From the IMG/VR virus record IMGVR_UViG_3300027804_000002: a stretch of DNA of 64,000 bases, one strand, 5' to 3'. How positions within the stretch are numbered: position 1 is the stretch's first letter; each line of letters starts with the position of its first letter. The DNA is from an uncultured virus (IMG/VR IMGVR_UViG_3300027804_000002). Lineage: Duplodnaviria; Heunggongvirae; Uroviricota; Caudoviricetes. The notes beneath the pieces are model-generated. The model worked only from the letters and a program-made list of their open reading frames with translations, ran no database searches and was not told where the DNA came from. Positions 11,750 to 62,355 of this stretch are shown piece after piece. Position numbers and translations under genes: made by a program.

Positions 11750-11860
11750 ATGACAACAAAAGACATTTTTTATTTAACAACCGTGCCAGTAGCTATGTTA
11801 GTAACTTATAAGTTACTATTGGAGCTGTGGTGTATAACTTATGGGTTAATTTATGGATGA
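11750..11860 (+). CDS. Small hydrophobic peptide (36 aa)
   Basis: ATG just after the RNA 3' end; hydrophobic sequence. Confidence 0.35.
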   Translation: MTTKDIFYLTTVPVAMLVTYKLLLELWCITYGLIYG

Positions 11861-12035
11861 TTTTAAGTGCCTTCCCAAAATGAAATCTGGCGGCCCAGTC
11901 GGCCTTTATGCCAACATCCACGCCAAACGAGAGCGCATCAAAGCCGGCTCCGGTGAGAAGATGCGTAAACCCGGTGCCAAAGGCGCACCAACCAAGGACG
12001 CATTTGTTCAGTCTGCAAAGACAGCTAAAAAATAA
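11853..12035 (+). CDS. Small basic phage protein with a GG-terminated leader
   Basis: 'MDDFKCLPKMKSGG' followed by 'GLYANIHAKRERIKAGSGEKMRKPG', a recurring small phage protein. Confidence 0.7.
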   Translation: MDDFKCLPKMKSGGPVGLYANIHAKRERIKAGSGEKMRKPGAKGAPTKDAFVQSAKTAKK

Positions 12036-18703: not shown

Positions 18704-21079
18704 TTAGCACTTCCACTTGCGGAGTGCTTTGTTGATGCGTGAATCCGGATCGTTGGCGGTCTTTGAAGAAGTTAGTTTTTTCTTCATGCCGCCCATCCTA
18801 GCGCAAAATGACTTCTTACGTGAGCCGCCTTCTGGCTGTGGTGCCTTCAATGTGCCACCAGTCTCACGCTTGTATGACGCACGACCTAAAGCGTTTAAAC
18901 CGCCCGATGGGCTTTTGCCTTCAGAACGTTGCCATGCTGGTGTAGTACTGCCACCCTCAGCAAACATTCTTCTTCTAGGCATAGGTTTTGGTATTGGCTT
19001 TGGAGTATAAGGCAGGGCTCTTTTAGCAAACGATGGGTTTATATTACCACTTAACGGAGGCGCAACACGTCTTTGTTGAAACGGCTGTTGCGGTGTTATT
19101 GGTGCAACAGGTTTTGGTGCGGTTGTTGGCGCAACAGGAGCTAAACTATTTAAACCTGATCCAACACTAGGTGTGTTAGTTACAACTGGCGACCCAGATT
19201 TATCAAAATTATTTATAGGATCCGTGCCAGGAGCAAAAGTTGGCAACGGTGCTACTTGTGAATTACCAGGAGAACCTTGAAGCCAATCAGCAGATGGGGG
19301 TGTGTATCCACCGCTAGGAGCATTCCAGGTTTCACCAGTTGCTTTATTGTAATAAGGCACTAAGGCCTGTGTAGAAGGACCCGTCGGAGCCGTAAATCCA
19401 TATGGGTTAGAATTTGTTTGTTCAGTAGATTGAACCAAACCGCCCGTAAGATAATGTTTTACTTGTCCACCTTCTTTAAAGTTTAGATTAAGTGGGTTCA
19501 GTATCTGAGCAGCGCCTTGACCGGTTGTTTCTTGAGCACGACTGCCGACAGGGGCATTGACAGGTATTGCTATTCCACCGCCTGTATAAATGGTGGGTTT
19601 TTTCTTTTGCACATGTACGCCAGCGGGGCCAAGGTTTACTTTATTAACGTCATACTTTTCACCCAGCATGCGTTTCATGTAATCTTCTAACTCCTGCTTG
19701 GTAAAACCTTTTTGGTACGTATCACGGCTTGTGATGATTGACATTGGTTCTGGGCCGGGTCTGCCTTTTGCTTTCATTACATCGGCGCCACGTGTTGTTA
19801 CAATGCCCTGACCGCCCGGTTCAATTACTCTGCCGATGTGGCTTGCAATCTCATCTCTAACTTTAGGCGGCACAACATTCATAACATTTAAGTTAGTCAG
19901 TTTGCCGTATGCTTCTGTGGGGATTTGTTTAGGATCAATGAACGTTGGCTTCCAACCTTTTGGAAACGGCTCATAGGTATCTGCTTTTAGAATCTTAGCA
20001 CCTTCACCAAGACCAGCACCAAAGTCTAGTGCTCTACCCTGTGCGCCGCGTTTTTTTAATTCTTCTTCAGCTTTTTCGTATGTTGGCAAAGTGCCAATGA
20101 TTTGAGTGCGGGCTGCATTCTCAGCCGGCGGCAAACCACCCTTACTTAAATGCGGAACTTTTTTTTTATTATTTTCCCGTATTGCTTTAGCTGCGCGTTC
20201 AGCCTTAGACATTTTATTCTTTGCTGACCCACCTTCAGCCATCTGTTGTGGCTGCTGGGGTTGAGCCTGTGCAGGATTTTGACTTTTCTTTTTAAGATAA
20301 TCAAGGAACGTATTTAAACCCTCAGCACCTAGTCCAATAGCCGTACCACCAATACGTGTTACAGGGTGTGGGATCATAGCCGCTGCAGTACCTAACGCAC
20401 CAATACCGCTAATTATTGAACCGCTGGTGTCACCAGCGTTGTAACGATTAAGCGCATCTGAACCTTGCAGACCAGCACCAAGTCCAACAGCACCACGACC
20501 AAGCATACCCATTGGCGCAGTTAATGCGGATTTAAAACCTCTAGGAGCTTTTGCTGCAGTTTGTTGGTTTTTTAAGGCGTCCATTTCTGCTTGACGTTGT
20601 GCAGCAAAGCGAGCTTGACGGGCAGTTTCTGCATCTGCTAGTTCAGCGGCTTTTTCAACATTGTAAGGGCCAGTCATCTTAGAAGCAATTTTACCTCTAC
20701 CTACAGGCTTATTTTTTTCGGCCTGTATGCGTTTAAATTCTTCATTTACTTCTTGAACTGTTTTACCTTCACCAGCACCAAAGCCAGTTTTTCTTGCCCA
20801 TTTTTGACCGGCTGAATCCCATTCTAAATCAGCAGGATTAACACCCATTTGTTTTGCAATGCTAGTACGTTGTCTTTCTTTTGCCCCAACATTTACAACG
20901 GGACCAGCGGCGGCTCCAACTGCAGCTCCTGCACCACCCATCATAACTTGATTTACGGCTTCAGTAGCTGCGTCAGGAGAAGGAGGTGCTGACTCTGTTT
21001 GTTTTGACGCAGCAAGCTCTTGTTCAGCCCGCTGCCTAAATTCAAATTCTTCTAGTTCTTGAGCAGTAAATTGAGACAT
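18704..21079 (-). CDS. Modular virion/ejection-region protein with an internal SAM-methyltransferase domain and a C-terminal DUF6321-like module
   Basis: 'ALDFGAGLG' motif I; C-terminal 'AWQRSEGKSPSGGLN...SFCARM...RINKALRKWKC'; modules separated by xxxGG motifs. Confidence 0.7.
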   Translation of the reverse strand: MSQFTAQELEEFEFRQRAEQELAASKQTESAPPSPDAATEAVNQVMMGGAGAAVGAAAGPVVNVGAKERQRTSIAKQMGVNPADLEWDSAGQKWARKTGFGAGEGKTVQEVNEEFKRIQAEKNKPVGRGKIASKMTGPYNVEKAAELADAETARQARFAAQRQAEMDALKNQQTAAKAPRGFKSALTAPMGMLGRGAVGLGAGLQGSDALNRYNAGDTSGSIISGIGALGTAAAMIPHPVTRIGGTAIGLGAEGLNTFLDYLKKKSQNPAQAQPQQPQQMAEGGSAKNKMSKAERAAKAIRENNKKKVPHLSKGGLPPAENAARTQIIGTLPTYEKAEEELKKRGAQGRALDFGAGLGEGAKILKADTYEPFPKGWKPTFIDPKQIPTEAYGKLTNLNVMNVVPPKVRDEIASHIGRVIEPGGQGIVTTRGADVMKAKGRPGPEPMSIITSRDTYQKGFTKQELEDYMKRMLGEKYDVNKVNLGPAGVHVQKKKPTIYTGGGIAIPVNAPVGSRAQETTGQGAAQILNPLNLNFKEGGQVKHYLTGGLVQSTEQTNSNPYGFTAPTGPSTQALVPYYNKATGETWNAPSGGYTPPSADWLQGSPGNSQVAPLPTFAPGTDPINNFDKSGSPVVTNTPSVGSGLNSLAPVAPTTAPKPVAPITPQQPFQQRRVAPPLSGNINPSFAKRALPYTPKPIPKPMPRRRMFAEGGSTTPAWQRSEGKSPSGGLNALGRASYKRETGGTLKAPQPEGGSRKKSFCARMGGMKKKLTSSKTANDPDSRINKALRKWKC

Positions 21080-23106
21080 TACTTAGGGCCCCTTTGTTGT
21101 AAATACAACTGATATCTTTTTTCTTTATCTGCGTCTTTATAAACAAATGGAGATGCAGCTGGTTTTGCTGCAGAAGATTGAGCTTCTCCAGTGCCCATTA
21201 CAACGCTATTACCAGATCTATCTTTTTCATTTAATGAGGCACCAACATTTTTAGCTTTACCCATGTCAATGTTGACACTATTAGCAAAATCCATCATTCT
21301 GTTGTTATAATCTTCACGCAATGCGCGGGCTTCTTTAGTAACTCTATACTGATCAAAATTACCCCTTGGATTACTGCCTTTCCAAGTATCGTAACTGTCG
21401 CCAACTTTTTGATCGTATTCAGCGCGCATTTTGCCCCATGCAAGATATTCTTTAATTGCACCTGGTGAGTTAAGTCTACTACCAGTAAGTTCTGCAATTA
21501 AGCCACGTTCAGCATCAGATACCGCACCTTGACCGGCAAGAAGTACTTTAGCTTCTTGCAATTTCATTTTAGCAAATTCACGACCTACAATTTGAGCTGC
21601 ATCTTTTTCAGCTTGACTAGCGTCTTTCATTGTGGACGCTATTAATTTATCAAAGTCTGTAATACCAATAGAATAATTTCCAGCCTTCACAGCGCTTTGA
21701 ACTAATGCACCAACACCGTTCCAAAATCCAGGTTTTTCAAATACACCAAAAACACGATTCGTTCTTGGATCTGTAACGTATTTTTCAATATTTACAATAG
21801 ATGCAAGTCTTGTACCAGAAGTACTACCGGCTTCAAGTATCTCAGCTTCTTTACCACCAATATATTTACCAGAAGCAGTGCCTGCGGCAACTTCTTTAGC
21901 TTCTGTACCTTTTAATTCAACTTCAGCTTGCGGTATAGTTTTCCGTTGTGGTGCACCAACTACAACTTCAGCCGGAGCTGTAGTTAAACCAGCTTTTTGT
22001 TTTGCTTGCGCAATATACTCACCAACAGTTGGGGCATTTGGATTACGTGGATCACGACGGTTTACATCAATAGTGCCGTCTGCTTTAATAGCACCAGGAC
22101 CGCCATAATAGGCAGCCATAACTTTATCTGGATCACCTTTGTACTGTTTATAGTATTTATCAATTAACGCATCACCAGCAGTTTTGTTGTGCTGGGGGTT
22201 GTTAATATCATAGTTTTGGGGAATTAATCCTTCTTTCTTAAGTCCTTCAAATGTATCAGGTAGAATTTGCATAGGACCAACAGCACCAGCGTAGTTTGGT
22301 TTAGAAGTATCTAGTTTACCGCCTAAACTTTCTTGGTTAAATATGCCGGTTTTAATTGCAGACAGCGTGTCTGCCGGAGCTTTTGCTGCACTTGGCTTAG
22401 ATGTAGGCATAATAATCCTGTCACCATAACCTATTTCTTTATAACGTTTAGCAGTTTCCGCGTCAATATAATCAAGTTCACCAGTTTGGGGATCAACAAA
22501 TTTAATTTTGTTTTCGTAAGTTGCTGGGTTGTATCTAAATTGCGCTTGTATTTGCGCCATTTTTTGAGCGTATGGATTGTAAATGCTGTTCCACTCTTCT
22601 TGTGTTCTTGCGTTGCTTAATGCTCTTTTAATTTCAGCAGGCATTTGATCAAATACAGACTGGCGCATACTAGCACCACCAGGAGCACCGGCACCACCGG
22701 CACCACCGGTTGGGACGCCGCCAGTTAACTCAGCTTGTTTACGCTCGTTAAAGGCTTTTTGTTGTGCAGCAGATGAACGTAATGCAGCCATTTGTTGGCG
22801 CATGTTAAATAACTCACGATCTTCTGCTAATTTTTGTTGGTCCATAGCTGTCAACGCAGCAGATGGCCCTTTTTCACCACCGGATCCCCAAGCAGCCGCA
22901 CGTTGTAAACCACGCTCAAATGTACTAAATGCGCCTGTTCGTTCATTAACCATACCTTGCATATTGGCTAATAACTCTTCAGTTTGAGTTGGGTCCATAG
23001 CAATGGTGCCAACAGGTGACAAACCTTTGCCAGTGGCTTTTACAGCAGCACCAGTAGCAGTGGGTTTTTCGTCTTCTTCTAAGGTATCAAGTCCGGGTGT
23101 TGTCAT
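21079..23106 (-). CDS. Ejection protein with lytic transglycosylase domain
   Basis: 'NQESLG', 'GAVGPMQI', 'AAYYGGPG' SLT motifs. Confidence 0.8.
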   Translation of the reverse strand: MTTPGLDTLEEDEKPTATGAAVKATGKGLSPVGTIAMDPTQTEELLANMQGMVNERTGAFSTFERGLQRAAAWGSGGEKGPSAALTAMDQQKLAEDRELFNMRQQMAALRSSAAQQKAFNERKQAELTGGVPTGGAGGAGAPGGASMRQSVFDQMPAEIKRALSNARTQEEWNSIYNPYAQKMAQIQAQFRYNPATYENKIKFVDPQTGELDYIDAETAKRYKEIGYGDRIIMPTSKPSAAKAPADTLSAIKTGIFNQESLGGKLDTSKPNYAGAVGPMQILPDTFEGLKKEGLIPQNYDINNPQHNKTAGDALIDKYYKQYKGDPDKVMAAYYGGPGAIKADGTIDVNRRDPRNPNAPTVGEYIAQAKQKAGLTTAPAEVVVGAPQRKTIPQAEVELKGTEAKEVAAGTASGKYIGGKEAEILEAGSTSGTRLASIVNIEKYVTDPRTNRVFGVFEKPGFWNGVGALVQSAVKAGNYSIGITDFDKLIASTMKDASQAEKDAAQIVGREFAKMKLQEAKVLLAGQGAVSDAERGLIAELTGSRLNSPGAIKEYLAWGKMRAEYDQKVGDSYDTWKGSNPRGNFDQYRVTKEARALREDYNNRMMDFANSVNIDMGKAKNVGASLNEKDRSGNSVVMGTGEAQSSAAKPAASPFVYKDADKEKRYQLYLQQRGPK

Positions 23107-23108
23107 AA

Positions 23109-24173
23109 TTATGGTTCGTAATTCTCTATGTTATTATAACCTTCATATGGGTTTGATGGTTCGTAAGTATTCCAATCAAAATCAGATCCGCCGCCACCGC
23201 CGCCACCCATATCAAAATCTTCTCCGGTATCGCCGGTACCGCCACCAACATCCCTGTTATCTAAATCTGGATTTGGGTTTGGTATGTATGTTCCACCGCC
23301 ACCACCACCTCCAGGTACATATACATCACCACTTCCGCCTCCGGTGCCACCAATGTTAATTCCAGCACGTTTAAAGAAATCCATTAAGCCACCAGCAGGT
23401 TTGTAGCCGGGTTCTCCAGGTTTTCCTACCGCAGGGAATAGCTCTTTGAGTAACTTATCAGTACCACTAATAGAACCACCAAGAGCAGAAACAATAGAAC
23501 CAATTTGGTTAAGAGGTGATAGGTTGGTAACGTTTTTGGTTGTAGTTGGGATCTGCATACCGCCAAGGATTTTACCTAGAGCAGATGAGGCAAAGAACGG
23601 ATCAGACTGTTGGGCCTGTCCTAATGACGTCATAGACTGAACGCCTTGACTTCCTACTTGACCTAGTGCGCCGGCGGCTTGTGCGCCAACGCCTTGAGCT
23701 TGTAAGGCTGCGTTCATTTGGTCGGCAAACAACTTAGACTGTGCGTCGGCCATGGCTTTATTAACTGCAGTCTGCCCACGCAAACTACCAAAATTACCAG
23801 AAGCAATATTACCCCCTTCAACGGGAGCAGTATATTGAGGCATTAATTGTTCTAATGCTTGGTTTTGAGCTTGGAATAAACCACCCATTGGAGTGGCTAC
23901 ATTGGGAGTAACTTGACCTGTGTCACTAACAAGCCAAGGATTAGCAGCACCAGAAGCAATTTGGTTTAGGGTTCCTTGAGCTTGAGTAAAAGGATTTTGT
24001 GAACCGCTAAGTTGATTAATAGCTTGACCAGCAACAGTGTTTTGTAAACTAGGAACATTACCAGCCGCAGTGGTTGCTTGGTTTACAACATTCTGTTGCG
24101 CGGTATCAAACCACGATGGCATTGAGGTGGATTGAACCGCCTCGTTTGATATAAAATTAGATAAGCCAGCCAT
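23109..24173 (-). CDS. Putative ejection/pilot protein
   Basis: Gln/Ala/Gly-rich, located among internal virion genes. Confidence 0.55.
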   Translation of the reverse strand: MAGLSNFISNEAVQSTSMPSWFDTAQQNVVNQATTAAGNVPSLQNTVAGQAINQLSGSQNPFTQAQGTLNQIASGAANPWLVSDTGQVTPNVATPMGGLFQAQNQALEQLMPQYTAPVEGGNIASGNFGSLRGQTAVNKAMADAQSKLFADQMNAALQAQGVGAQAAGALGQVGSQGVQSMTSLGQAQQSDPFFASSALGKILGGMQIPTTTKNVTNLSPLNQIGSIVSALGGSISGTDKLLKELFPAVGKPGEPGYKPAGGLMDFFKRAGINIGGTGGGSGDVYVPGGGGGGGTYIPNPNPDLDNRDVGGGTGDTGEDFDMGGGGGGGSDFDWNTYEPSNPYEGYNNIENYEP

Positions 24174-26197
24174 TATTTTTTCACCTTCTTTTTCGCTTCC
24201 GTTAGGTATCCCAACGCGCCTTTACTATCTGGCGGTAATTTTCTTGAATCTGCTTTACGTTTATGTTCACGAATTGTTTTTAAAAATTCGCTTAATATTT
24301 CTGCACCACTATCATTACTGCCGTTACCTAATGATGATACAACATCTGCGGGAATTACAAACTCACCGTTTGCTAACATTGCTGGGATACTATCGCTAGT
24401 ACCATCACCCTTACCTTTTACGTAACTGTTCTTTAACGAGTTTAAACCACCTTCGCTAAAGAACTCAGGATTGTGTCCAATAGGACCACCTTCTTTTGCA
24501 GCTTTCCATTCTTTACCAAATGGGTAACCTGCCAATTCATAATTTAATGTTTTTGGTTTAACTATTCCTGGTTTTAACGCCATAATACTAGAACCGCTGC
24601 TTAAAAATGGTGAAGTGCCAGTGTAGCTTAAATCATAAACACCTTGTGTGTCAGTAGCAGGTCTGCCGCCGGTTGCCATTTCTTGAGGTTCTTGTTCTGG
24701 CGCCGAACCAATTAAACTATAATTTGGATCTCCAGTTAATACGTTAGATGTTAGTTGTGAACCGTATTGTGAGTTTAACATTAAACCAGGATCGGCCGCA
24801 GTTTGATTTGCGCCAGGTGTTGGTTTTTTAACCATGCCTTTGCGAATAGTTGCTGCTCTTGACAAACCAGGTCTACCAATTTTTACAGCAAAACCAGAAC
24901 CAGATTTTTCATCAGGAATTTCTGTGTATTCTTCTTCTTGATACTCACCGCTCATGTCAAAGTCTTCGCCGGTGCCTTTATCACTCATGTCAAAGTCTTC
25001 GCCGGTGCCTTCTAAACTACCTAAACCACCCGTACTAGTTGCTTCAGTAACATCAATAACTTCACCGTCTGGTGACATTGTAAGCGTGGATCCGTCATCA
25101 TAAGTATATATTAGATTACCGCGCGTGTCAGGTTTTTGGTTTTCCAATCCATCCGAAACAATTTCTTTTGGTTCTGGAATAGGCGCACTCATATCAAAAT
25201 CTTCACCGGTTGCGTCTATTGGTGATTCTTCTTGATATGGGTCAACATAATCTAATGTAGATCTTGATTCACCAGCAGTTGGCAACATGCGGTCATACTC
25301 TTCTTGAGTAATCTCACCATCAGCTAATTGCTGGTCTAATTCTTCTTTAGTTGGCGCAGGTAAAGATACACCTTCACCCTCAACATCCTCTGCGCCAGTT
25401 ACGGTAACAGATGCTTGTGGTTGATCGCTAGTTATTGTGCTTGCTGTTTTAGCGTAGGGCGATGGGCCAGATTGTTCTGCGTCCGCTTGCCCTTTAGCAA
25501 TTGCGTATGATTCTTCTGGTGAAAAACCGTTTTGAATAGCGTCTCTAAATGTTTGAGACATTGTTATTTCATCAGAAGGAATATTTGTTTCTGCGGTTTG
25601 TATTGTTTCAGTTGGTGGTGTGTAAGGCTCACTTCTGTCAATTACGGGGGCAGTTCTGTCATCCAGACCGGCATAATCTCTAACACCGCCAGCTATTTCA
25701 TTAGTACCGTATCTAATAGCTGCGTTGCCAATCATAGAACCCAGTGCTTGAGCAGGATCTCTTCCTTGAGCTGCAGCAACTGCGGTATTGGCAATTGCTT
25801 GGTCAGCAAAACTTGAACCAGTGCTAAGATCAACTGGTAAATTAGCTGTAATGCCCTGGGTTATCATGCTAGTGCCAATGTTTTGCGCCACTTGCATTGG
25901 GTCGGCGCCGTTTGCTAATGCCAAGCCAGTGTTTAATACCATAGCCGCTTGGGCGGTAGTTGCACCAGCCCAAAGATAAGGCGCTACATATGGTGCCGCA
26001 ATAGCAACAGCAATAAGCGGTAACGCTTTAGCTGGGTCGTTAGCAATTGCTTCTACTGTTCTACCAACAGATTGAGCTGTATCTTCAACAAAATTACCTA
26101 CTTCTTGGGCAGCGTCGCCAATGGCTTCACCAACCGCGCCAACTGCGTCACCAACCGCTTCAAATGTATCTGATACAACTTCAACGACGGCAGCCAT
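24173..26197 (-). CDS. Putative ejection protein
   Basis: N-terminal amphipathic and hydrophobic segment, acidic middle, C-terminal 'GDGTSDSIPAMLANGEFV' motif also typical of tape-measure C-termini. Confidence 0.6.
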   Translation of the reverse strand: MAAVVEVVSDTFEAVGDAVGAVGEAIGDAAQEVGNFVEDTAQSVGRTVEAIANDPAKALPLIAVAIAAPYVAPYLWAGATTAQAAMVLNTGLALANGADPMQVAQNIGTSMITQGITANLPVDLSTGSSFADQAIANTAVAAAQGRDPAQALGSMIGNAAIRYGTNEIAGGVRDYAGLDDRTAPVIDRSEPYTPPTETIQTAETNIPSDEITMSQTFRDAIQNGFSPEESYAIAKGQADAEQSGPSPYAKTASTITSDQPQASVTVTGAEDVEGEGVSLPAPTKEELDQQLADGEITQEEYDRMLPTAGESRSTLDYVDPYQEESPIDATGEDFDMSAPIPEPKEIVSDGLENQKPDTRGNLIYTYDDGSTLTMSPDGEVIDVTEATSTGGLGSLEGTGEDFDMSDKGTGEDFDMSGEYQEEEYTEIPDEKSGSGFAVKIGRPGLSRAATIRKGMVKKPTPGANQTAADPGLMLNSQYGSQLTSNVLTGDPNYSLIGSAPEQEPQEMATGGRPATDTQGVYDLSYTGTSPFLSSGSSIMALKPGIVKPKTLNYELAGYPFGKEWKAAKEGGPIGHNPEFFSEGGLNSLKNSYVKGKGDGTSDSIPAMLANGEFVIPADVVSSLGNGSNDSGAEILSEFLKTIREHKRKADSRKLPPDSKGALGYLTEAKKKVKK

Positions 26198-26664
26198 TAC
26201 GCACCCATCCTTTCACCTTGCAATACAAGAGTTACTCGAATTTGTTTGCCGTCAGTTGACTTTTGTACGGTGTATCCCATATTGGGGTTTCCCAGTTCTT
26301 GTTCTTCTCGGGCGATATATTTAAAAATATTTAAAAGGGAAGGGTCGGAGAAAGTAGTCTGCAGTCCAGTAAAACCATCTTCAATTGCTTTGTCTACAAA
26401 CATTTTGCTGTTTTGTATAAAGTTTTCAGCGGTGTCTGCATTAAGGGCACGGAACACACCGAACTCTTCACGTTGTTCGGAAGGGTGGATTACAAAAACA
26501 GTATTGCCAAACTTATACAATCTGGCGTTAGGCAATCCTAATTCTGCCGTAAAAAACAAAAAAACTTGTTTAAATGGATACGGCGAACGAGTGTTTTCAG
26601 CCGCGATCTTTACGATCATGTCTGTGCCTAGTTCTTCTTGTTTGCTGTCGACCATTTGAGTCAT
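26197..26664 (-). CDS. Hypothetical protein heading the ejection-protein operon
   Basis: 155-aa ORF directly downstream of a late promoter. Confidence 0.6.
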   Translation of the reverse strand: MTQMVDSKQEELGTDMIVKIAAENTRSPYPFKQVFLFFTAELGLPNARLYKFGNTVFVIHPSEQREEFGVFRALNADTAENFIQNSKMFVDKAIEDGFTGLQTTFSDPSLLNIFKYIAREEQELGNPNMGYTVQKSTDGKQIRVTLVLQGERMGA

Positions 26665-26700
26665 AGCTGTTCCTGTTTAAAAGGTATGATTCTTACATAT

Positions 26701-26730
26701 ACTAATGCAAAAATATTGCATTTATCGCCC
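26701..26730 (-). promoter_or_regulatory. Late-type promoter GGGCG-N15-TTGCATTAGT
   Basis: Exact consensus match. Confidence 0.75.
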
Positions 26731-26734
26731 TAAA

Positions 26735-26986
26735 TCAAGTGGTTGGGCCGTTTAAAATAAAGCTAAGGGCTGAGGCCCAGTCTTGCCAAGTCTCAAATGC
26801 TTCCGGGTCTGGGACCGGATAGCTTTCAAATGTAGTTAGTTGGCTAATGTTTTTAGCTACTAGTTTCCAATTATCCTCGTTGTCATACATAATTGGCTCT
26901 TCGCCAAAGTAATGTAGGAAGTTGCCGTTCCAATCATCCCAAGACATATACTCTGGGTTGATTGGGAAGAATGTTTGGATACTCAC
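26735..26986 (-). CDS. Hypothetical Trp-rich protein
   Basis: Overlaps the stop of the tail hub gene. Confidence 0.6.
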   Translation of the reverse strand: MSIQTFFPINPEYMSWDDWNGNFLHYFGEEPIMYDNEDNWKLVAKNISQLTTFESYPVPDPEAFETWQDWASALSFILNGPTT

Positions 26987-29118
26987 GGACGCTCGTCGCC
27001 GTACTCTGCAGTAATAAGCAGGCGGCCCATTTCAAAGTTACCGTCCAATACGTTGGACTCAAACTTGAGGCGTACTTCGCGGTGCTCTACGCGCAGGTCA
27101 ATCTTACCGGTGTCTGGGTCAAAGTAAAATGGCCCCGAGGTCTCTGTATCTCCGCGGGCAAATTTACGGCCCAATATGGTCATAGCCATTGTGCCGGACT
27201 GTACAAAGTCTGGCTCAATACGTCTTAAGTGCATACGCCGGTTAACGCCAGTGGCGCTGTCTTGTGATGGTATCCCACCAACCCAGCTAATGTCGCAAGT
27301 CGTGATGCTAGATGTAATGGCAAACTCTTGGTTAAACGTAATAGCGTTTGTGCCAAACTCATGCTGCCATAGTGGATATCCACCTTCAATATAATATATG
27401 TAATCGCCGGCTACTTGAATTGGGTCAAAGTTTACATCTACAGTAATTAATGTCACACCCTCTGGGTTTGTTGCTGTAATTGCAGAGGTAAACATAAAAA
27501 CACTTGTTACAATTTTATAAACAACAGGGCTTCCCGTATTTGTCAGCGAGATATAGTCACCCGCGCCAAAAGTAGCCGTCACGTCACCATTAATATATAC
27601 CTGGTTATTATTCGGTGGCGATTCACTGGGTGGCTCGTCAATAACTTCAAACGGTACGCTAAATGTATTAATGTCTTCCCATCCAGCCCAGATTGGTGTT
27701 GGGAACACCTCGGTGGTATATCCACACGATCTACGTGATCCAGGCGCGCTTCCGGCGTCGTACCAGATTTTGTCTTTGACGTTGTATACAATTGCGTCGG
27801 TGCATTCTGTGGCATCGCCGCGGGGATAAAAAAACCAGATCTCATTATACCTAGGTACTTTGGTTGCCCATACCTTTTGGCGCTGTACAAAGTTGAGGTT
27901 ATCAAATAGCCAGTTTACGTTTTTATCATTTGGCAGTACAGAGACCGCACCATTGTATAGGTAGAAACGGTCGACACCCATCCAGTAAAATATACCATCC
28001 ATCTCAACAAAGCACGAGGATGATATGGTAGAGATCTGGCTAGAAATAATATCATAGCGCCAGTAAAGCGGAGTTGTGCCGGTAAACGAAACACGGATCA
28101 AACTATCAGTTGCCCAGAACAATCCAGACGGTGAGTTAGTACCGCCGCGTACTGGTATGCCTTTAACAATCTTAGACGAGGCCATGTTGACCTGGTTAGA
28201 CGTTGGGCCGTTCCAGTCGGTAATTGTTTGCTGGTTGTATAATGTTAGCGTTGTATTGGTGTCGACGTTGTTGTTGGCAATAAAGCCATCCGACCCATAC
28301 ACAAACGTGTAGGGATACAACACGCAAACACCACCATCTACTACTATTGGTCGATAGGTTGGATTCTGACCGCCAGTATCGGCTAATCCGTAAAAGTTCC
28401 ATTCGTTTGATGAGTCTGGCAATAACCCACCAGTTAATACTTGGGTCTGGATGGCGTTGTCAATGTTTGCTAAGTTTTGACCCGGATGCGCCAACACTTG
28501 TAACGATCCACCCGCAGGCGAATACTGTAAGTCAAACTGCCACAACAGATTTGGATCTGGTGTAAATGTAACATCGTACAACGCTACCGTTGTGGGCGTT
28601 CCAGCAATACTGGAGGCCGTTACAGTTACCGTTGTATTTGGTGACGAATATACCGCACTAACTACTGTAGTTGCGGTAGTAATGTCGTCGTCAAATATAA
28701 CCGTCATTGCGGCAGGAAACGCCGCGGTTACGTCGCCAGCAATTACAAAGGTGCTGGTTGTGTTTGATACCAATGTAAAAGGTGCATAGCCAGGTAAAAT
28801 ATTTACAGTAAGCGGACCACTGCCAACGCCAAACGTAGTGCCTGTTGTAAATGCTTCTAAGCCATACTGGTTACCAACAAAAATGTAGTTAACTCCGTTA
28901 AAAGAGTTAGATATCATACCTCTTGGTATGCCGGTAAACGTCGCAAACAGTTCACGGTAGCCACCCATTTTTCTAGGCGTGCCACGTTGAAAACGGCACC
29001 ATTCTCCGTCACTGAACTCACGTGACTCAAATATTGTGCCGTCTCGTTTTATACCTGGCTGAACACCAAGCGTGTAGACCAGATTATACTGTTCTGGTAA
29101 GCTGTTTTCTCCGGCCAT
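26983..29118 (-). CDS. Tail hub / head-closure (P22 gp10-like) protein
   Basis: 711 aa, beta-rich; 'FYWMGVDRFYLYNG', 'YNEIWFFYP', 'LRRIEPDF'; position in the tail module. Confidence 0.65.
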   Translation of the reverse strand: MAGENSLPEQYNLVYTLGVQPGIKRDGTIFESREFSDGEWCRFQRGTPRKMGGYRELFATFTGIPRGMISNSFNGVNYIFVGNQYGLEAFTTGTTFGVGSGPLTVNILPGYAPFTLVSNTTSTFVIAGDVTAAFPAAMTVIFDDDITTATTVVSAVYSSPNTTVTVTASSIAGTPTTVALYDVTFTPDPNLLWQFDLQYSPAGGSLQVLAHPGQNLANIDNAIQTQVLTGGLLPDSSNEWNFYGLADTGGQNPTYRPIVVDGGVCVLYPYTFVYGSDGFIANNNVDTNTTLTLYNQQTITDWNGPTSNQVNMASSKIVKGIPVRGGTNSPSGLFWATDSLIRVSFTGTTPLYWRYDIISSQISTISSSCFVEMDGIFYWMGVDRFYLYNGAVSVLPNDKNVNWLFDNLNFVQRQKVWATKVPRYNEIWFFYPRGDATECTDAIVYNVKDKIWYDAGSAPGSRRSCGYTTEVFPTPIWAGWEDINTFSVPFEVIDEPPSESPPNNNQVYINGDVTATFGAGDYISLTNTGSPVVYKIVTSVFMFTSAITATNPEGVTLITVDVNFDPIQVAGDYIYYIEGGYPLWQHEFGTNAITFNQEFAITSSITTCDISWVGGIPSQDSATGVNRRMHLRRIEPDFVQSGTMAMTILGRKFARGDTETSGPFYFDPDTGKIDLRVEHREVRLKFESNVLDGNFEMGRLLITAEYGDERP

Positions 29119-30380
29119 TAGAACGTCCCGCCACCAATTAACCCTGCGTTAAATGTTGCTGGTGTAGATACCTGTGGACTTAGCGTGTTAGTGTTATCAA
29201 TCTCCAACATGAGCGTAGAGTTTGCCGATAGTCCAAGCACGTTAGTACCAACTAAGTACATACCCGTGTTGGTATCATTTGTAAAGGAGAACGATGGTGC
29301 CGCAGCAGAACCGTTGTCTGCATAGTAGACACCCACGGTTGTTTGGCTAATAATATACAACTGGTTACCATCACTTAACGCCAGTACAACACCGCCGTTA
29401 GCTAACGCAATTGGTGTCTGTAAACTGCCAGAAATTTGGAATGTAACATTATATCCAGATTGTCCCGTATTGTTTACCAACACATACAACTGAGTTGTTG
29501 CTGGTAGGGTGACATCCAAATCAACCGCACGAGTGCCGGCTAATGCAACATAAGTCTGGATAATTGGTGCGTACGATACTAAACTAAATGTGTTACCTAC
29601 AACGGAGTCCACGTCGTACGTTGCCGATGTAAAGGTTACATTTGACGGTACAGATAAACCAACGGTAAAGAAATTACCAGAGGATTCTTGAAAGACAATA
29701 AAGCCAGACTCTGCGGGGTTAACAGTTATATTTGCTAGACTGTCAATTGTTGAAGTGCCTTGTGGCGTGATTGTAATCGCACCAGTTCCGTTATTTCTAA
29801 ACGCAATATACCAGCCGGTAGTTAAACTAGCCGCCGTTGGTAGTGTAAATGTGCCATTACCACCCGTCCAGACAAATGTAGCGGCACGGCTTGCGTCTGT
29901 AATTGATGGTGTTGACGATACCTCTACAACGTTTTGCGTGGTGTTTAGTTTGCCAGATAGGGCAACTAAACCGTTTCCAGCTAACGAAGCGGCATCGGCG
30001 GATGATGTGCCAGCGCCAAAGGTTACATTTTGCCAGACACCAGCAGAAGTAGAGTTATCCGATAGATAAAAATATTTAGACACTCCTGCGGGGATTGACA
30101 CAGATCCTGTGCCAGCAAAGTCTTGTACAGTAAATGCTACGCCACCAAAGTTACGAATTAAGATATCCGCGCCGGTAGTTCCTTGGTTTGCCTCGGGTAA
30201 TGAAATAACCAAGTTAGAAGTAGACGGTGTGCAGTCGATAATACGAGCGGCGGGTACTTGCTGTGGGTTAACAACCGCCGGCCAATATAGTTGTACGTTT
30301 GCGCTAAAGTTAAGCTCGTAGTACGATACGTCGGTTGGCTGTACGACTGTGCCGGTAAACGGTGATGTGTAGATTGGCAT
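29118..30380 (-). CDS. Tail structural / fibre-like protein
   Basis: Thr/Ser/Gly-rich beta repeats; 'GSAAAPSFSFTNDTNTGMY'. Confidence 0.6.
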   Translation of the reverse strand: MPIYTSPFTGTVVQPTDVSYYELNFSANVQLYWPAVVNPQQVPAARIIDCTPSTSNLVISLPEANQGTTGADILIRNFGGVAFTVQDFAGTGSVSIPAGVSKYFYLSDNSTSAGVWQNVTFGAGTSSADAASLAGNGLVALSGKLNTTQNVVEVSSTPSITDASRAATFVWTGGNGTFTLPTAASLTTGWYIAFRNNGTGAITITPQGTSTIDSLANITVNPAESGFIVFQESSGNFFTVGLSVPSNVTFTSATYDVDSVVGNTFSLVSYAPIIQTYVALAGTRAVDLDVTLPATTQLYVLVNNTGQSGYNVTFQISGSLQTPIALANGGVVLALSDGNQLYIISQTTVGVYYADNGSAAAPSFSFTNDTNTGMYLVGTNVLGLSANSTLMLEIDNTNTLSPQVSTPATFNAGLIGGGTF

Positions 30381-30383
30381 ATA

Positions 30384-31004
30384 TTATGGTTCCTGGACCG
30401 TAGTATTTCGATCAATACGACGCGAGTTGTCTTCCTTCTTCAACGCGGCTAATGACTCGGTGTAGTAGCTTTTCCATACGGGCAGCTTATCCAACGCCTT
30501 TAGATAGCCCTGGGCCTGTAGTAAAGTTCCAAACAACATCGCCTGCGGGCACTCGCGCGTGAACAAGTTGGTCTGGTTAGATGTATCTAATGGCTGGATT
30601 AGGCTGTAGTAAATAATTTCTACTGGGTAGTCATCGTCTGGCTTTGGCGCAAAGTTCCAGTTGTTGTAGTCATACTCGCCGTAGTACTTTGGCTGCCCGT
30701 TGCTAGACTCTGATTGGTACTGCGCAATATAATCCTGTGAGCGCAACAATACTGGCGCGCCGTTGACCTTCATAGACACAGTTTTACGCCAGCGTGCTGG
30801 TTTAGCTAGCACGTCCTGGTTAGTTGCCAGTGTGGTTTCTACGACAGTTAATTGCAGTAGCGACTTTAACTCTGCCGCAATCGCTGCCTCAGCCAATCCA
30901 ATTAGGCTGGGGATCTGTGCAACAAACCCGGCGTCGTCACGTTCCATGTAACGCTGGACGTCATCTACCAGATTGTTGTAGGTCATTACGTATGCGCCGC
31001 TCAT
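30384..31004 (-). CDS. Tail adaptor / tubular protein
   Basis: 'IPSLIGLAEA', 'GQPKYY', 'FAPKPD' adaptor pattern. Confidence 0.65.
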   Translation of the reverse strand: MSGAYVMTYNNLVDDVQRYMERDDAGFVAQIPSLIGLAEAAIAAELKSLLQLTVVETTLATNQDVLAKPARWRKTVSMKVNGAPVLLRSQDYIAQYQSESSNGQPKYYGEYDYNNWNFAPKPDDDYPVEIIYYSLIQPLDTSNQTNLFTRECPQAMLFGTLLQAQGYLKALDKLPVWKSYYTESLAALKKEDNSRRIDRNTTVQEP

Positions 31005-32080
31005 CGTGTATAGTAGCTGTAGTTAGGTTGGAAGTAAATAGGCGACTTGTCGCGCTCTTCTTGTGCTGCGTCGTACTCTAATTTAACGGCTTGTTGTTCT
31101 AAATACCCAATACGTTGCAGATCAATCTGTGGTAACTGTATTGCCAGCTTGTGTGATAGGCTGGCTTGGATAGAACCAATCCAACGGTTTGGTAGGTATA
31201 ATTCGTCAGTTAGCGAACCAACGTCTGGCATTTGTGTCTCTATAATTAATTGAAACACTTGGTAGTTATTATTTGGTACGGGCCACAAGTACATGCGTGG
31301 TTCGATCAAACGATCGTACCAATATTGCAATGAGCGTTGGCTTGGGAATTGTTTGTTGGGTAGGTTCCAGTAGTCGTCACGGTTTAGTCGTGCCAATGGA
31401 ATAACCTGCTGACTCTGTGCGAACTGGATGGCACGCAACGAGAATGTTGCTAGTGTGTTTCGGTTTTTTAATCTAAAGTAATAAAACTGTTGGGTGGCGT
31501 TAATGCTAAAGTAGGCCCACTCACGGTCTGCTAGTGTGGTGGATGGGAACGACTCCCACACCGTCCAGTTTGTTCCGTCGTTGCTGACCTCAAAGTCTAG
31601 GGTATAGGTTGCCGTTGTTCCTGGGCAGTACGCATTAAATCCAACGTAAAACAAACGTGTTTGGTTACTGTACGCCGCACCAAAAAAGTTATTACCTAAT
31701 GAACTGGTTGCAAACAAATCAAGTGTGTCGTTTGCGTCTTGGTCAAACAGGTTGACAACGTTTGGGTTTGATGTTGGCAATAAACCGCTGTACGACGGGT
31801 TAGTAATATAAACCCAGTTTGCCTCACGCACGTCAATCGTGCTCTCTGGCAACGAAATCCATTGTGCGTTTGTTGGGGCACCAATGACTTTATTTTCTAA
31901 TAGCCATAGGTTAACGCCACGGTTAGATAGGTTTTGTAGAATGTAGTAGAGTGCTTGTTTGCCTGCATCAATATACTCAGGCGTGATTTCTTCTGCCGTC
32001 TTACCAGCATCACGATATGCGTACGAGATCAACTGATCTACGTTGATCTTGGTCTGGTTGATGGTACCAGAATATGACAT
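31001..32080 (-). CDS. Adaptor-family virion protein with an inserted beta-sandwich domain
   Basis: 'NRGVNLW', 'YWNLPNK', 'YLWPVP'; insert 'EVSNDGTNWT' is discoidin-like. Confidence 0.6.
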   Translation of the reverse strand: MSYSGTINQTKINVDQLISYAYRDAGKTAEEITPEYIDAGKQALYYILQNLSNRGVNLWLLENKVIGAPTNAQWISLPESTIDVREANWVYITNPSYSGLLPTSNPNVVNLFDQDANDTLDLFATSSLGNNFFGAAYSNQTRLFYVGFNAYCPGTTATYTLDFEVSNDGTNWTVWESFPSTTLADREWAYFSINATQQFYYFRLKNRNTLATFSLRAIQFAQSQQVIPLARLNRDDYWNLPNKQFPSQRSLQYWYDRLIEPRMYLWPVPNNNYQVFQLIIETQMPDVGSLTDELYLPNRWIGSIQASLSHKLAIQLPQIDLQRIGYLEQQAVKLEYDAAQEERDKSPIYFQPNYSYYTR

Positions 32081-32083
32081 AGA

Positions 32084-32251
32084 TTAACGTCCTCTGCCGG
32101 ATGCGCGTTTAGTTACTTTTTGTGGAAGGTTTGGTTTTGCTTTGCCGGCTTTGATAAACTCCTTGCCAACCTTCTTTGGGATGCCAAGGGTTGATTTACC
32201 AGCCGCGGCGGCGTACATTGCCTTCTGTTGTTGTTTAGATTCTATCGGCAT
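32084..32251 (-). CDS. Small basic phage protein
   Basis: Start at ATG 32251: [32 protein letters not shown]. Confidence 0.65.
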
Positions 32252-32252
32252 A

Positions 32253-33422
32253 TTAAGGCTTGTATCCACGGTTGCGTTGTGATTTGCCAAATCCTGGTCC
32301 AAAAAAATCGGATAAGTTATAACCTTTTGTGCCCCTCAAGAATGAACGTGGTGCCATAGGAGCAGTACGTAATTGATTTTCTTGTGGGTATGCTAAACCA
32401 GAATCTGCATCAACATTGGGGCGTTGTTGAACAGCAGGAGCTGCAGCAGGACGGCGAACAGGAGCTTTAACTGGTGCAGTCGGAGTCATCTTATTAATTG
32501 GCGTATATAAATCGCCATACTCATTACGCTGCATAGTTGATGGTGCGCCAGTTTCGTCACGCAAAGTGCTGTCCATTGGTGCTAGTGCTGGTGCAACAGT
32601 TTGACCTACGTCACGGTTATCCATAGCTGGAACGGCGTTTGGAATGTAGTTTTGCTTTTGTGGGATTGCTCTGCGCATACGAGCCATGATGAATGGGTCG
32701 GTGCGATCAGCACCACCTAAGTATGCTTCTTCTTCAGCAGTCAAAGGGCCAGTAGAACCACCAGTGTTAAACTTCTTAATTTTGCCGCCTTTTTTCTTGG
32801 CAACAGCTTCACGCTCTGCATCAGATACGGAGCCTTGTCCTTTTAGCGCAGACTTAGCAGCACTAATACCTTTAGTGATCATTTTTCCAGCAGCCCGAAC
32901 CGGTTTCATAATCATTTCACGGTCTTGGGTGTTTTCCTCAAGGGCAATATCATCGACCAGCTTTTGTGGATCTTTTACTTGCTGGCCGTTACTATACTTT
33001 TTTACTTTACCACCCTTCTTAAAAAACTTAGGGGTGTTCATTACATCTTTAGTTGCGGCGCTAGGAGCGGCTGCCTTTTTGGGCTTGGTCTGCTTGACTT
33101 TTTTAATGTCATCTTTATCACCGGCGTCTTTCTTCATTTCGATAGCGCCGCCGGCTTTATACTTTTTTACTGTACCAACCTCTTTCTTCATCCGCCCACC
33201 TTTTTTGAGCTTGGATAGGTTAGTTTTTTCTCCCTCGTGGGATTGTTTGTCGTGCATGGCAAATGCCTTCTTGACAACTTTCTTGTCTTGGACAATGTCC
33301 TTTTTCATTTCTTTGGACTCGGAGTGGCCGCCTTTTTTCATTTTGCCGCCGTAGGCCATGGCTTTAACAGAGCCGCCTTCTTTAAAACATTGCATCTTGG
33401 GGAGTGATTTAAAGCCTTCCAT
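32253..33422 (-). CDS. Lys-rich protein with repeated xxxGG motifs
   Basis: FKEGG, MAYGG, MKKGG, LKKGG, YKAGG, FKKGG, KKKGG, FNTGG. Confidence 0.7.
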
Positions 33423-33474: not shown

Positions 33475-33504
33475 ACTAATGCAAAAATACAGGGGTTTAC
33501 GCCC
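33475..33504 (-). promoter_or_regulatory. Late-type promoter GGGCG-N15-TTGCATTAGT
   Basis: Exact consensus match. Confidence 0.75.
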
Positions 33505-34030
33505 CTGCTAAGAACAATGTGCGCTCTATTTGACGGCGCTTTTTAAGTACTGGTGGGGTGCTCCAGTTAAGGAACGCATCTCCAGCCTTGTGCACATTAC
33601 CATCGTTTAGGTGTTTGACTACCTCAGAACGCATAATGTTGTTAGGTCCAATGTTGTGGCACAGGCTCATTAGGGCGTCAATCTGGTGCCTTCTAGGAAT
33701 GGTGTTTAAAGCCGATTCCAGGGCCGTAGAGCACTTTTCTAGGTCACGGTGTAGGATACCCATTACCTCGGCTTCAGAAAGCTCTTTGTGAAGCAAATGG
33801 GTGTCTTTTTGGCGAATTAAATGCCCCACCCCAGTCGTCCAGTAACCGCCAGCATCCTGATAAGCGCGGTAGCGCTTTCCTTCAAAGTGTTCTATTAACT
33901 CAACGGTTGAGTCCGCAACCCATTGGAATGGGGTGTGGGCTATAGCCCACTTAGCCAGGGGATCATGGAAGCACATTCCCCAAACAAGCGCGATCGCGCA
34001 GGCGTACACCGCCAACTGATGTCGTAGCAT
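33497..34030 (-). CDS. GH24 lysozyme, SAR-type endolysin
   Basis: Catalytic E-x8-D-x5-T in 'FEGKRYRAYQDAGGYWTTGVGH'; N-terminal hydrophobic segment. Confidence 0.85.
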   Translation of the reverse strand: MLRHQLAVYACAIALVWGMCFHDPLAKWAIAHTPFQWVADSTVELIEHFEGKRYRAYQDAGGYWTTGVGHLIRQKDTHLLHKELSEAEVMGILHRDLEKCSTALESALNTIPRRHQIDALMSLCHNIGPNNIMRSEVVKHLNDGNVHKAGDAFLNWSTPPVLKKRRQIERTLFLAGA

Positions 34031-34049
34031 AACGTCTCCTTAATTTAGA

Positions 34050-47513: not shown

Positions 47514-48068
47514 TTATTGGAAGCGAATATTACTATTTGCTTTTGCGGCCTCTTTTTCCATTTCCAAAACTCCACCTTCAAGAATAGATCTGCCGCCTTT
47601 GCCGTCTTGAGCAGTGCTCCGAACGGATGCGGTGATATTGCGTTGATGTTCGAGGGGGTCCTCGAGGTGCATCATGCGCATCACTTCTTGATAGATTTCT
47701 TCTGGTAACTTAAAGAGAACCATCTCGTTACAACTAACACAGCCTTCAAACTTGCCCGAGCTCATTTTACCTAGTGCTTCAAAGCCTTTTCCTAATTCTG
47801 CGGCTTTCACTGGCTCATAACCCAATGCCATACGTTTGTCGATACTGTCATAATTATTTGTGGTGGATAACCAACACAAATGGAATCCAGGGATTGCTCC
47901 TGCTGGAAGGTCTGGCAACGCGCTATTTTGCCATTTATCTCTGAACGCCTCTGCACGTTCGCGCCGGGATTTTGCATCCGGATCTTCTGCTGCCATCCGG
48001 TCTTTTACCTCTTCGACTCGATCTACTAAACGATCTTCTAAGTCGCGTTTGATTCTTGTATTTGCCAT
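47514..48068 (-). CDS. Conserved head-module hypothetical protein
   Basis: 'PGFHLCWL...GYEPV' between the scaffold and capsid genes. Confidence 0.6.
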   Translation of the reverse strand: MANTRIKRDLEDRLVDRVEEVKDRMAAEDPDAKSRRERAEAFRDKWQNSALPDLPAGAIPGFHLCWLSTTNNYDSIDKRMALGYEPVKAAELGKGFEALGKMSSGKFEGCVSCNEMVLFKLPEEIYQEVMRMMHLEDPLEHQRNITASVRSTAQDGKGGRSILEGGVLEMEKEAAKANSNIRFQ

Positions 48069-52820: not shown

Positions 52821-53066
52821 TTATTTGAAAAACTGGTTAAAGGCTTTTACTAAAGCTGGATGGGAATAGGGGTCGGTGTTTTGTGGATTTTCTGCCACAA
52901 ATAATTCTGCCTGCATGTCTTTTACTGATTTTCCTTCGGCAAACCTAGGAACCACGTTAGTTTCCTCAATCAACATTTGTTGTGGGGTTTTGAGCATGCC
53001 CGGACTATGAGGCGCCATTCCGGCCTCTTCCATTAATTTTTGGTGTGGAGTCTTTAAGGGATTCAT
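52821..53066 (-). CDS. Hypothetical protein with an internal 'LKTPxQxLxEE' duplication
   Basis: Two copies of the motif plus FAEGK. Confidence 0.55.
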   Translation of the reverse strand: MNPLKTPHQKLMEEAGMAPHSPGMLKTPQQMLIEETNVVPRFAEGKSVKDMQAELFVAENPQNTDPYSHPALVKAFNQFFK

Positions 53067-61920: not shown

Positions 61921-62355
61921 ATGAATTTTATATTTAATGATGGTGGTCGATCCAAAGCGGGTTATAAAGGCAAAGCGGGTGATTGTGGGGCAAGGGCTAT
62001 GGCAATAGCGTTAGGTATTGATTACCAAACCGCCTACAACGAATTAGCCCAAGCCAACAAAGACAAAGGGTTTACAAAATCCGCAAGGAACGGCATTTAT
62101 AAAGATGTGTATTCTGATGTATTAAAAAGGCATGGGTGGGTTTGGCACTCAGCACCAAAATTTAAAGTGCTTGAGGGGTATAAAAATTCAGAGGGCAAAG
62201 TTTTATTTGGACGAAAAGCGAAATGTTCAGATATGCCAAGTGGAATTGTAATTGCTAGACAAGCGGGGCATTATGTGGCAGTAATAGATGGTATTCCCAA
62301 TGATATTTGGGATTGCTCAAACAAGATGGTTTATGGATATTGGGGAAAGGTTTAA
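61921..62355 (+). CDS. Conserved phage hypothetical protein
   Basis: 'GDCGARAMAIA...GHYVAVIDG...DIWD' Cys/His/Asp pattern (peptidase-like fold possible). Confidence 0.6.
   Translation: MNFIFNDGGRSKAGYKGKAGDCGARAMAIALGIDYQTAYNELAQANKDKGFTKSARNGIYKDVYSDVLKRHGWVWHSAPKFKVLEGYKNSEGKVLFGRKAKCSDMPSGIVIARQAGHYVAVIDGIPNDIWDCSNKMVYGYWGKV

Follow-up and report, generated by a model that had tools for sequence, protein, structure and literature searches.

The late operon of the uncultured Caudoviricetes virus IMGVR_UViG_3300027804_000002 raises the question of what is done with a short peptide motif, [MFYL]xxGG, that punctuates several of its proteins. The analysis covered 64,000 nucleotides of this virus (the window), which make up most of a phage genome, genes beyond the window being unseen. 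In the original prediction, made from the sequence alone, the motif was taken for a shared processing or capsid-loading tag. All of the copies listed there were found at their positions, although the 389-amino acid (aa) protein contains seven strict matches, its eighth copy being KKKGG, and AKEGG of the 674-aa protein is also outside the pattern. The motif-bearing proteins are as follows.

18704..21079, minus strand: 791-aa protein, encoded at the end of the late operon, with five motif copies (starting at residues 280, 311, 534, 543, and 706); a variable ejection-type N-terminal part (residues 1-280) is followed by exchangeable cargo cassettes.
24173..26197, minus strand: 674-aa protein, first gene of a putative ejection set, with an N-terminal part of 507 residues that is hydrophobic and then acidic, three motifs, and a C-terminal module, here called GEFV.
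24446..24679, minus strand: the motifs of the 674-aa protein, MATGG (residue 507), AKEGG (567), and FSEGG (580).
32253..33422, minus strand: 389-aa Lys-rich protein with eight copies (starting at residues 13, 22, 28, 72, 88, 134, 209, and 218).
11853..12035, plus strand: 60-aa protein next to the small terminase gene, consisting of a leader, MKSGG (residue 10; 11880-11894), and a basic module called GLYANIHAK.
52821..53066, minus strand: 81-aa protein between large terminase and portal, with FAEGK (residue 42; 52929-52943).

To compare motif frequency in late and other genes, 1000 shuffles of a gene set of 100 open reading frames (ORFs) were used. Genes of the late strand contain 29 copies against 15.9 expected (p=0.001) and the others 9 against 5.8 (p=0.13), so that late enrichment is seen at the level of the strand. 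It does not extend to all late genes: the 791-, 674-, and 389-aa proteins together account for 15 copies against 2.9 expected (shuffle maximum 9), and the remaining late genes have, by subtraction, 14 against 13.0, which is chance level. The excess is confined to three large proteins, and operon-wide enrichment was therefore rejected. Because these proteins were chosen after the motif had been seen, ortholog conservation across 74 related loci, scored with a slightly wider motif pattern, served as the independent check. The motif was found in 51/51 orthologs of the 389-aa protein, 32/32 of the 674-aa protein (at least one copy), and 19/23 of the 791-aa protein; the figures for the neighboring 354- and 675-aa proteins are 9/29 and 4/26, for the nozzle 4/61, and for the adaptor 0/72. 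Matches in a 420-aa tail protein (22/74) and a 359-aa tail protein (16/64) were treated as inherited chance hits. FAEGK of the 81-aa protein is a variant of the motif; at this place one distant relative has FADGG and four relatives have an extra YS[QK]GG.

Codons vary between motif copies, showing that the constraint acts on the protein, and a DNA-level repeat was rejected on this ground. A set of 150 proteins contained 427 copies against 53 expected, a figure that is partly circular because the query contained the motif; 175 of these copies lie outside the part covered by the query. The bulky residue and the A/K/S that precede the glycines are fixed across unrelated phage groups. Literature searches, conducted mostly without subscription papers, found no description of the motif or of its tie to a module. 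The motif is thus regarded as a real, widespread, and apparently undescribed feature, and would represent a new variant of virion protein processing if a cut were confirmed.

The position of the motif was followed in the 791-aa protein, which is probably a virion component, judging by its place in the operon. Its parts are listed below.

20228..20242, minus strand: MAEGG (residues 280-284), closing the N-terminal part; most orthologs in this slot have a site near residue 240-290.
20135..20149, minus strand: LSKGG (residues 311-315), opening the methyltransferase-like cassette, as seen by ortholog comparison.
19478..20146, minus strand: S-adenosylmethionine (SAM)-methyltransferase-like cassette (residues 312-534), with weak family matches; relatives have unrelated cassettes instead.
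19439..19480, minus strand: FKEGG (534) and YLTGG (543), tandem sites; the stretch that runs from these sites up to FAEGG is missing altogether in the related locus L025.
18950..18964, minus strand: FAEGG (residues 706-710), directly 5' of DUF6321.
18704..18961, minus strand: DUF6321, a small basic module (residues 707-791, net charge +13; Pfam E=5e-19 for residues 721-789).

Family assignments for the cargo are weak, both for the methyltransferase-like cassette (Methyltransf_23, E=0.025; TIGR04096, E=0.0014; PHROG 2774, E=4e-9) and for an ART-PolyVal match in a relative (E=0.0036). A motif stands directly before DUF6321 in 16/16 distinct complete slot proteins, as expected if it marks module junctions. 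L025 retains the same methyltransferase-like cassette without the following stretch; L036, L038, and others have unrelated cassettes between two motifs, the one in L036 being homologous to a stand-alone gene of phage CRP-901; L023 and L031 have little or no cargo, and L057 has neither motif nor cargo. When the 16 slot proteins were aligned, 71 of 127 internal alignment ends, which stem from related sequences and hence are not independent, fell within 8 residues of a motif, against a random mean of 7.0 and a maximum of 18. The joints marked by the motif are therefore places where relatives acquire, drop, or exchange cassettes, and the shuffling of modules around it, which the original prediction had named as a check, is borne out. 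So is the proposal that two of the modules are normally stand-alone small proteins: DUF6321 occurs both as a separate gene in other phages and in fused form, the 60-aa protein corresponds to PHROG 16028, and PHROG 11180 fuses both.

The GLYANIHAK module of the 60-aa protein was sampled in 80 loci; 76 of them could be parsed, giving 74 distinct copies. Of these, 44 have an ATG within nine codons but lack the motif, 20 have the motif without such an ATG, 7 have both, and 3 have neither. Sorted by eye, ~26/27 fused copies have the motif directly upstream and ~1/47 stand-alone copies are matched by it; the motif therefore occupies the place of the start codon of the free form, and replaces it when the small module is fused. 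Where a further module follows downstream, a second motif lies between the two in 5/5 cases. The short leader of the 60-aa protein is of the same type as the start of the 389-aa protein, in whose family tandem copies occur and spacers vary freely while the motifs are kept. Both the 60-aa gene and the small terminase gene (11853-12424, plus strand) belong to the replication region; they are encoded opposite to the late operon and ~40 kb away from the large terminase gene. The slot around large terminase and portal, which holds the 81-aa gene here (52821-53066, minus strand), is a second cargo hotspot: an 890-aa motif-bearing protein is found there in MW202545 (L076 38651-41323), and a run of stand-alone cargo-like genes 3' of the portal in CRP-901 (L078 35175-44747).

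Joints of this kind might be no more than flexible linkers or recombination seams, with Gly-Gly hinges that aid unfolding at ejection, short repeated DNA that provides microhomology by which cassettes are exchanged, and a peptide that nothing reads. The deletion junction of L025 falls inside Gly-Gly codons, and the flanks of the motif are of low complexity, both of which suit such an explanation. It is nevertheless improbable in view of the varied codons, the fixed residues before the glycines, and conserved terminal copies that join nothing, and it accounts neither for the co-occurrence of motif and GEFV module nor for a cut mapped in phage T5, both of which are described below.

The C-terminal part of the 674-aa protein provided a candidate for what reads the motif.

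24176..24457, minus strand: GEFV module (residues 581-674), with invariant G595, G597, G599, D602, and E612; candidate motif reader or cutter.

Conservation is much stronger in this segment, which is found in proteins of 130 to 1900 residues, than in the remainder of the 674-aa protein. In an alignment of 102 rows, some of them selected by a pattern containing the Asp, only the three glycines, D602, and E612 are invariant. Matches included PHROG 6090 (E=8e-8), PDB 8zdo_S (E=2e-6), and tape-measure proteins, and 13,051 cluster representatives were matched at E up to 0.001. Compared directly, GEFV and the lambda-type tape-measure module align with an hhalign probability of 94.6% (E=7e-8); profile comparison shows GEFV to be a homolog of the module found at the C terminus of lambda-type tape measures. 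The motif accompanies the lambda-type module as well, upstream in 57/59 distinct copies and downstream in 56/59, just as FSEGG (580) stands upstream here, and in prophage loci viewed by eye, and not counted, the core is nearly always preceded and often followed by F/Y-A-x-G-G. The original prediction had mentioned FAxGG near tape-measure C termini; this link is more than an analogy.

Motif and module also tend to occur together among relatives. The module was found in 33/33 HTVC023P-type loci of at least 14 kb (33 of 81 loci), with 132 motifs against 46.5 expected, and it is present in MW202545 (19 against 4.2) and DSL-LC04 (9 against 3.8). It is absent from CRP-901-type loci (0/16; 12 motifs against ~23 expected) and from Pag-Yong1 and QDWS535, in which motifs are not enriched (3 against 3.8 and 2 against 2.5, respectively). 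The motif thus travels with the GEFV module, being enriched in groups that contain it and not in the three examined groups that do not, with Caulobacter phage RW as the exception. No other element was found to accompany the motif in short-tailed as well as long-tailed phages, which makes the module the best candidate for the reader and a plausible cutter.

Where a cut might fall is indicated by three observations outside this phage group. Tape-measure protein pb2 of T5 is cut after R1127, according to intact-mass mass spectrometry in the accessible part of PMC10038345. In its sequence, A-E-G-G occupies residues 1128-1131, directly after R1127, and among the 1219 residues there is only one other x-A-x-G-G site; the 92 residues that remain agree with the published length. 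Secondly, in tape-measure modules of the GEAGPE type the second motif position is Ala in 105/110, whereas the first varies. Thirdly, the cargo protein C1 (gp45; PF25725, crAss_CARG1; PDB 7QOG chain M) of crAss001 has nine x-[AK]-x-G-G sites, and its modeled portal-bound domain comprises residues 425-552 in the text of PMC10172136 that was available. Residue 425 is the A of A-F-G-G, and 552 is just before the next site at 559; a second modeled piece (214-245), ~420 Å away, lies between sites at 206 and 260. Together, these observations place the cut before A-x-G-G.

The crAss001 protein resembles the 674-aa protein in further respects. Its gene follows that of the nozzle and opens an ejection set, its N-terminal part is hydrophobic, and x-A-x-G-G sites recur on the flanks of small basic cassettes and of a compact domain whose core is of the GE-hydrophobic kind. 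In 25 distinct crAss C1 proteins, 89 copies were counted against 14.7 expected, and cassettes are lost at the sites. Differences are that homology of the domain to GEFV was not established, that no cleavage is reported, and that crAss C2 and RNA polymerase cargo proteins have almost no motif. PF25725 gave no match in the Pfam scans, and in the ESM Atlas crAss_CARG1 was the nearest named cluster (score 0.84), which is a lead only. Peptides of crAss001 named in the available text of PMC10172136 span no motif; many motif-free peptides are unnamed there too, and this was given no weight.

Lambda gpH offers a parallel case. It is cut ~14 kDa from its C terminus, giving gpH* and gpHC, and a 2025 paper (PMC12617516) states, in the part available, that site and catalyst are unknown. 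FATGG (733) and YATGG (778) stand around its GEFV-homologous module, and under the motif rule a cut at F733 is predicted to give 79.8 and 12.5 kDa and one at S717 a fragment of 14.1 kDa. Tape-measure processing in T5 and lambda is similar in that the same x-A-x-G-G is found at the T5 cut and a homologous module in lambda; both pb2 and gpH are ejected, channel-forming proteins. It differs in being one trimming event in a tail protein, whereas in the short-tailed phage studied here the motif recurs in five separate proteins and bounds cargo that can be exchanged. The accessible portions of the T5 and lambda trimming literature do not mention the motif.

With these findings the part of the original prediction that concerned function can be divided. 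A processing or capsid-loading tag remains the best class of explanation, supported by the junction position and the shuffling of modules, whereas the analogy to Gly-Gly cleavage, including that of bacteriocins, is not supported as to the cut position: the only precisely mapped cut that was found, in T5 pb2, precedes A-x-G-G and is not within or after the glycines. Superficially, the motif does resemble (M/L/I)xGG sites, and a cut within or after Gly-Gly by a dedicated cysteine protease, as in adenovirus, African swine fever virus (ASFV), or C39-type systems, could be ascribed to the 144-aa gene at 61921, some relatives of which are annotated "peptidase". We consider this very improbable: the T5 cut and the first modeled crAss001 residue both keep A-x-G-G on the downstream piece, and the 144-aa gene is in the early region. 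Both proteases that had been put forward were rejected on their distribution. The 29 hits of the 144-aa protein (61921..62355) include none from HTVC023P, the Caulobacter phages, DSL-LC04, or MW202545, and the 184-aa protein (47514..48068) has orthologs in CRP-901 and Pag-Yong1, both of which are without motif enrichment.

We therefore favor, with moderate confidence, the reading that the motif is a processing seam, cut before A/K/S-x-G-G during particle maturation; for this phage, cutting is proposed by analogy. In a first step, the procapsid would incorporate the three large motif proteins (674, 791, and 389 aa) together with the small ones of 60 and 81 aa. Next, a cut would separate the first residue of the motif, which is usually bulky, from A/K/S-x-G-G, and every resulting piece would begin like a free protein. 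Such cutting would free ejection domains from basic anchor peptides and release enzymes such as the methyltransferase-like cassette for delivery, while short basic peptides would remain in the head with the DNA. The 791-aa protein would yield an ejection domain, the methyltransferase-like enzyme, and basic peptides; the 389-aa protein would yield nine pieces, all of them predicted to be net basic; and the acidic 507-residue part of the 674-aa protein would be freed from its C-terminal module. In the third and weakest step, the GEFV module would read the motif and probably cut it by means of E612 and D602, after oligomerizing at the portal. The trimming of tape measures in long-tailed phages would be explained by this module, which is flanked there by motif copies close to the C terminus.

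That the GEFV module is itself the catalyst is rather unlikely on present evidence. In the full form of this proposal, to which we attach the same tentative weight, a module of ~45 residues with an invariant Glu would be a self-contained and as yet undescribed protease, activated by oligomerizing in the assembling particle and cutting before A/K/S-x-G-G. It would also catalyze the trimming of lambda gpH and T5 pb2, and would have been extended in short-tailed phages (this group, HTVC023P pelagiphages, and crassviruses) to a general polyprotein system that loads arbitrary enzymes and basic peptides into the head.

The cut could instead be made by a host protease or an unrecognized phage enzyme, with the GEFV module presenting the site or serving in portal docking or peptidoglycan hydrolysis. 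This variant, which is contained within the favored reading, is possible but doubtful. No catalytic fold was found for the module with AlphaFold2, Foldseek, or VIA-align: with alignments of 79 and 102 rows, AlphaFold2 folded only its C-terminal helices, and Foldseek and VIA-align gave no match to the predicted module above background (best Z 5.1). Pfam scans of 96 window ORFs detected no maturation protease family in the late operon, no gp21/HK97-type or other protease family near the head genes, and no Ulp1-like cysteine protease, although remote homologs, or genes beyond the window, could escape. The candidate lambda gpK, a JAB-type peptidase, was dropped as a general cutter because no such family is seen in the window. 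A title of 1973, cited in the accessible part of PMC12617516, reports that the host takes a selective part in cleaving a T5 tail protein, which also fits an outside enzyme. Against one stand the joint presence or absence of motif and module in phages whose head genes are otherwise shared, and the single specificity that SAR11, Bacteroides, and Escherichia coli hosts would all need to have.

Without any cut, the motif could be a short binding peptide by which tagged proteins are captured in procapsid assembly by a portal-anchored GEFV module, the 389-aa protein acting as a multivalent scaffold. The motif is mostly at protein ends, as such a loading tag might be: in 80 HTVC023P-type loci, 82 sites were within 35 residues of the N terminus and 39 within 20 of the C terminus, while 69 belonged to the interior of the protein that carries the module and 20 lay elsewhere. 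The Atlas lead, the tandem arrangement seen in the 389-aa family, and the binding of the crAss001 C1 domain to the portal wing, described in the available text of PMC10172136, are in line with it as well. It is unlikely, however, in that the motif is absent from stand-alone small modules but stands at every joint of fused ones, where one tag per chain would suffice. Moreover, T5 pb2 is cut at the motif, tape-measure proteins have motif and module and yet are not loaded through a portal, and the 354- and 675-aa proteins lack the motif here.

Several points weigh against cutting at the motif, and against the GEFV module as its agent. Copies that are 6-9 residues apart, or ~3-14 residues from the C terminus, would release nothing obviously useful and suit a binding tag equally. 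T5 provides one mapped site, and the A of the T5 and crAss sites is replaced by K, S, N, or L in many copies of this phage. Residues 1118-1187 of T5 pb2 match the GEAGPE-type profile weakly (E=9e-4), and the GEAGPE and GEFV profiles align with an hhalign probability of 3.3%, so homology between the T5 segment and the GEFV module is not established; the crAss C1 domain reaches only 0.6-3.5%, though aligned on the same GE core. For lambda, the x-A-x-G-G site at 717 fits the 14-kDa fragment better than F733 does with 12.5 kDa. The tape measure of TP901-1, reportedly the phage studied by Pedersen et al. (2000), has neither motif nor module. That study is cited for tape-measure processing in the accessible part of PMC1796659. 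The literature on T5, as far as available, describes the counterpart as a muralytic zinc-peptidase motif instead, and the crAss001 authors, in the text at hand (PMC10172136), take gp45 as an intact chain. The GEFV core is only ~45 residues long and was not folded by AlphaFold2 (predicted local distance difference test score 50-60). Co-occurrence rests on few independent lineages and on a pattern tuned on positive cases, and uses partial genomes, that of Pag-Yong1 being without its first 15 kb; Caulobacter phage RW has the module but only local motif copies (3 against 3.6 expected genome-wide). Literature searches found no proteomic or structural data for this phage or close relatives.

The setting in which the motif proteins are found is that of a short-tailed phage. 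The window has a G+C content of ~45%, with a late operon encoded by the minus strand. Capsid protein identity is 65% with Caulobacter phages RW and GB2A and with MW202545, and ~40% with CRP-901 and HTVC023P. Pfam scans of the 96 ORFs detected a gene for an SU10-type adaptor and no tail tube or tape-measure family, and a nozzle-type protein is homologous to proteins annotated "stabilization protein". From these features the phage is read as short-tailed and related to Caulobacter phage RW, HTVC023P, and CRP-901, and the 674-aa protein, in a genome with adaptor and nozzle-type genes in place of tail tube families, is not a long-tail tape measure of the lambda gpH type. Gene order and an SLT domain suggest that the last four late genes (674, 354, 675, and 791 aa) form the ejection set; the two members not listed above are as follows.

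21079..24173, minus strand: 675-aa (SLT domain) and 354-aa putative ejection proteins; conserved-type motif copies are absent in this genome (Pfam and motif count).

Other genes of the window were noted in passing. A lysozyme and an M15 peptidase (33497-34881, minus strand), neighboring peptidoglycan hydrolases, occur together with a three-helix holin. A GroES-like co-chaperonin (49079-49519, minus strand) adjoins a scaffold-like gene and is found in all seven isolates opened from this group; none was seen in the fetched part of DSL-LC04. Directly upstream of the large terminase, and overlapping its start, is a 330-aa ORF (54538-55530, minus strand) that matches the long PHROG 15 terminase profile and by eye resembles a free-standing intein with endonuclease, starting with Ala and ending with Cys-His. 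The replication region encodes a phosphopantetheinyl transferase (3765-4130, plus strand), an acyl-carrier-like protein (8058-8357, plus strand), and a beta-ketoacyl synthase (8354-9463, plus strand); a ketoacyl synthase is encoded in MW202545 too, there among tail genes. The ejection-type proteins of MW202545 (L076 11333-14494) have unusual Cys-rich runs and many scattered Cys. A partial sigma-70-like gene is at the window edge (3-434, plus strand), and the identity of a 155-aa gene product as a GNAT could not be demonstrated.

Maturation of head contents by a protease with a shared site is already known in kind from T4, adenovirus, and ASFV, as is the trimming of tape measures. The T4 prohead protease gp21 recognizes one short site common to many head-internal proteins, from which leaders are removed while small peptides stay in the head. 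The arrangement proposed here is alike in having one short site shared by head-internal proteins, but the site is another one, no gp21/HK97-type protease gene was detected near the head genes, and major capsid and scaffold proteins are without a clear motif copy, YDQGG at residue 70 of the capsid protein being the only match to a loose pattern and at chance level. The adenovirus protease and ASFV pS273R, Ulp1-like cysteine proteases, release basic core peptides at di-glycine sites by cutting in or after the glycines, whereas here the evidence points to a cut three residues earlier, and Pfam scans of the 96 ORFs detected no enzyme of this type. Phage polyvalent proteins, which are strings of unrelated effector domains in late virion genes, were proposed to be processed and contain zincin-like HEXXH peptidases (Iyer et al. 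2017, PMC5512222, available in part). The cassette swaps described above likewise combine unrelated effector domains in a late virion gene, with the caveat of weak family assignments, but no HEXXH or other peptidase match was detected in the 791-, 674-, and 389-aa proteins, and the accessible part of PMC5512222 describes no junction motif.

The question of how lambda gpH is processed becomes directly testable, with named sites, F733 first and S717 second, and a candidate catalytic residue, all in a phage that can be handled in the laboratory. If the proposal is true, one signal would link the tape measures of long-tailed phages to the ejection proteins of short-tailed phages, and the crAss001 structure would be reread as separate pieces and not as twelve chains threaded through the portal. 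The exchange of injected effectors in abundant phages of marine, freshwater, and gut habitats would be explained as well.

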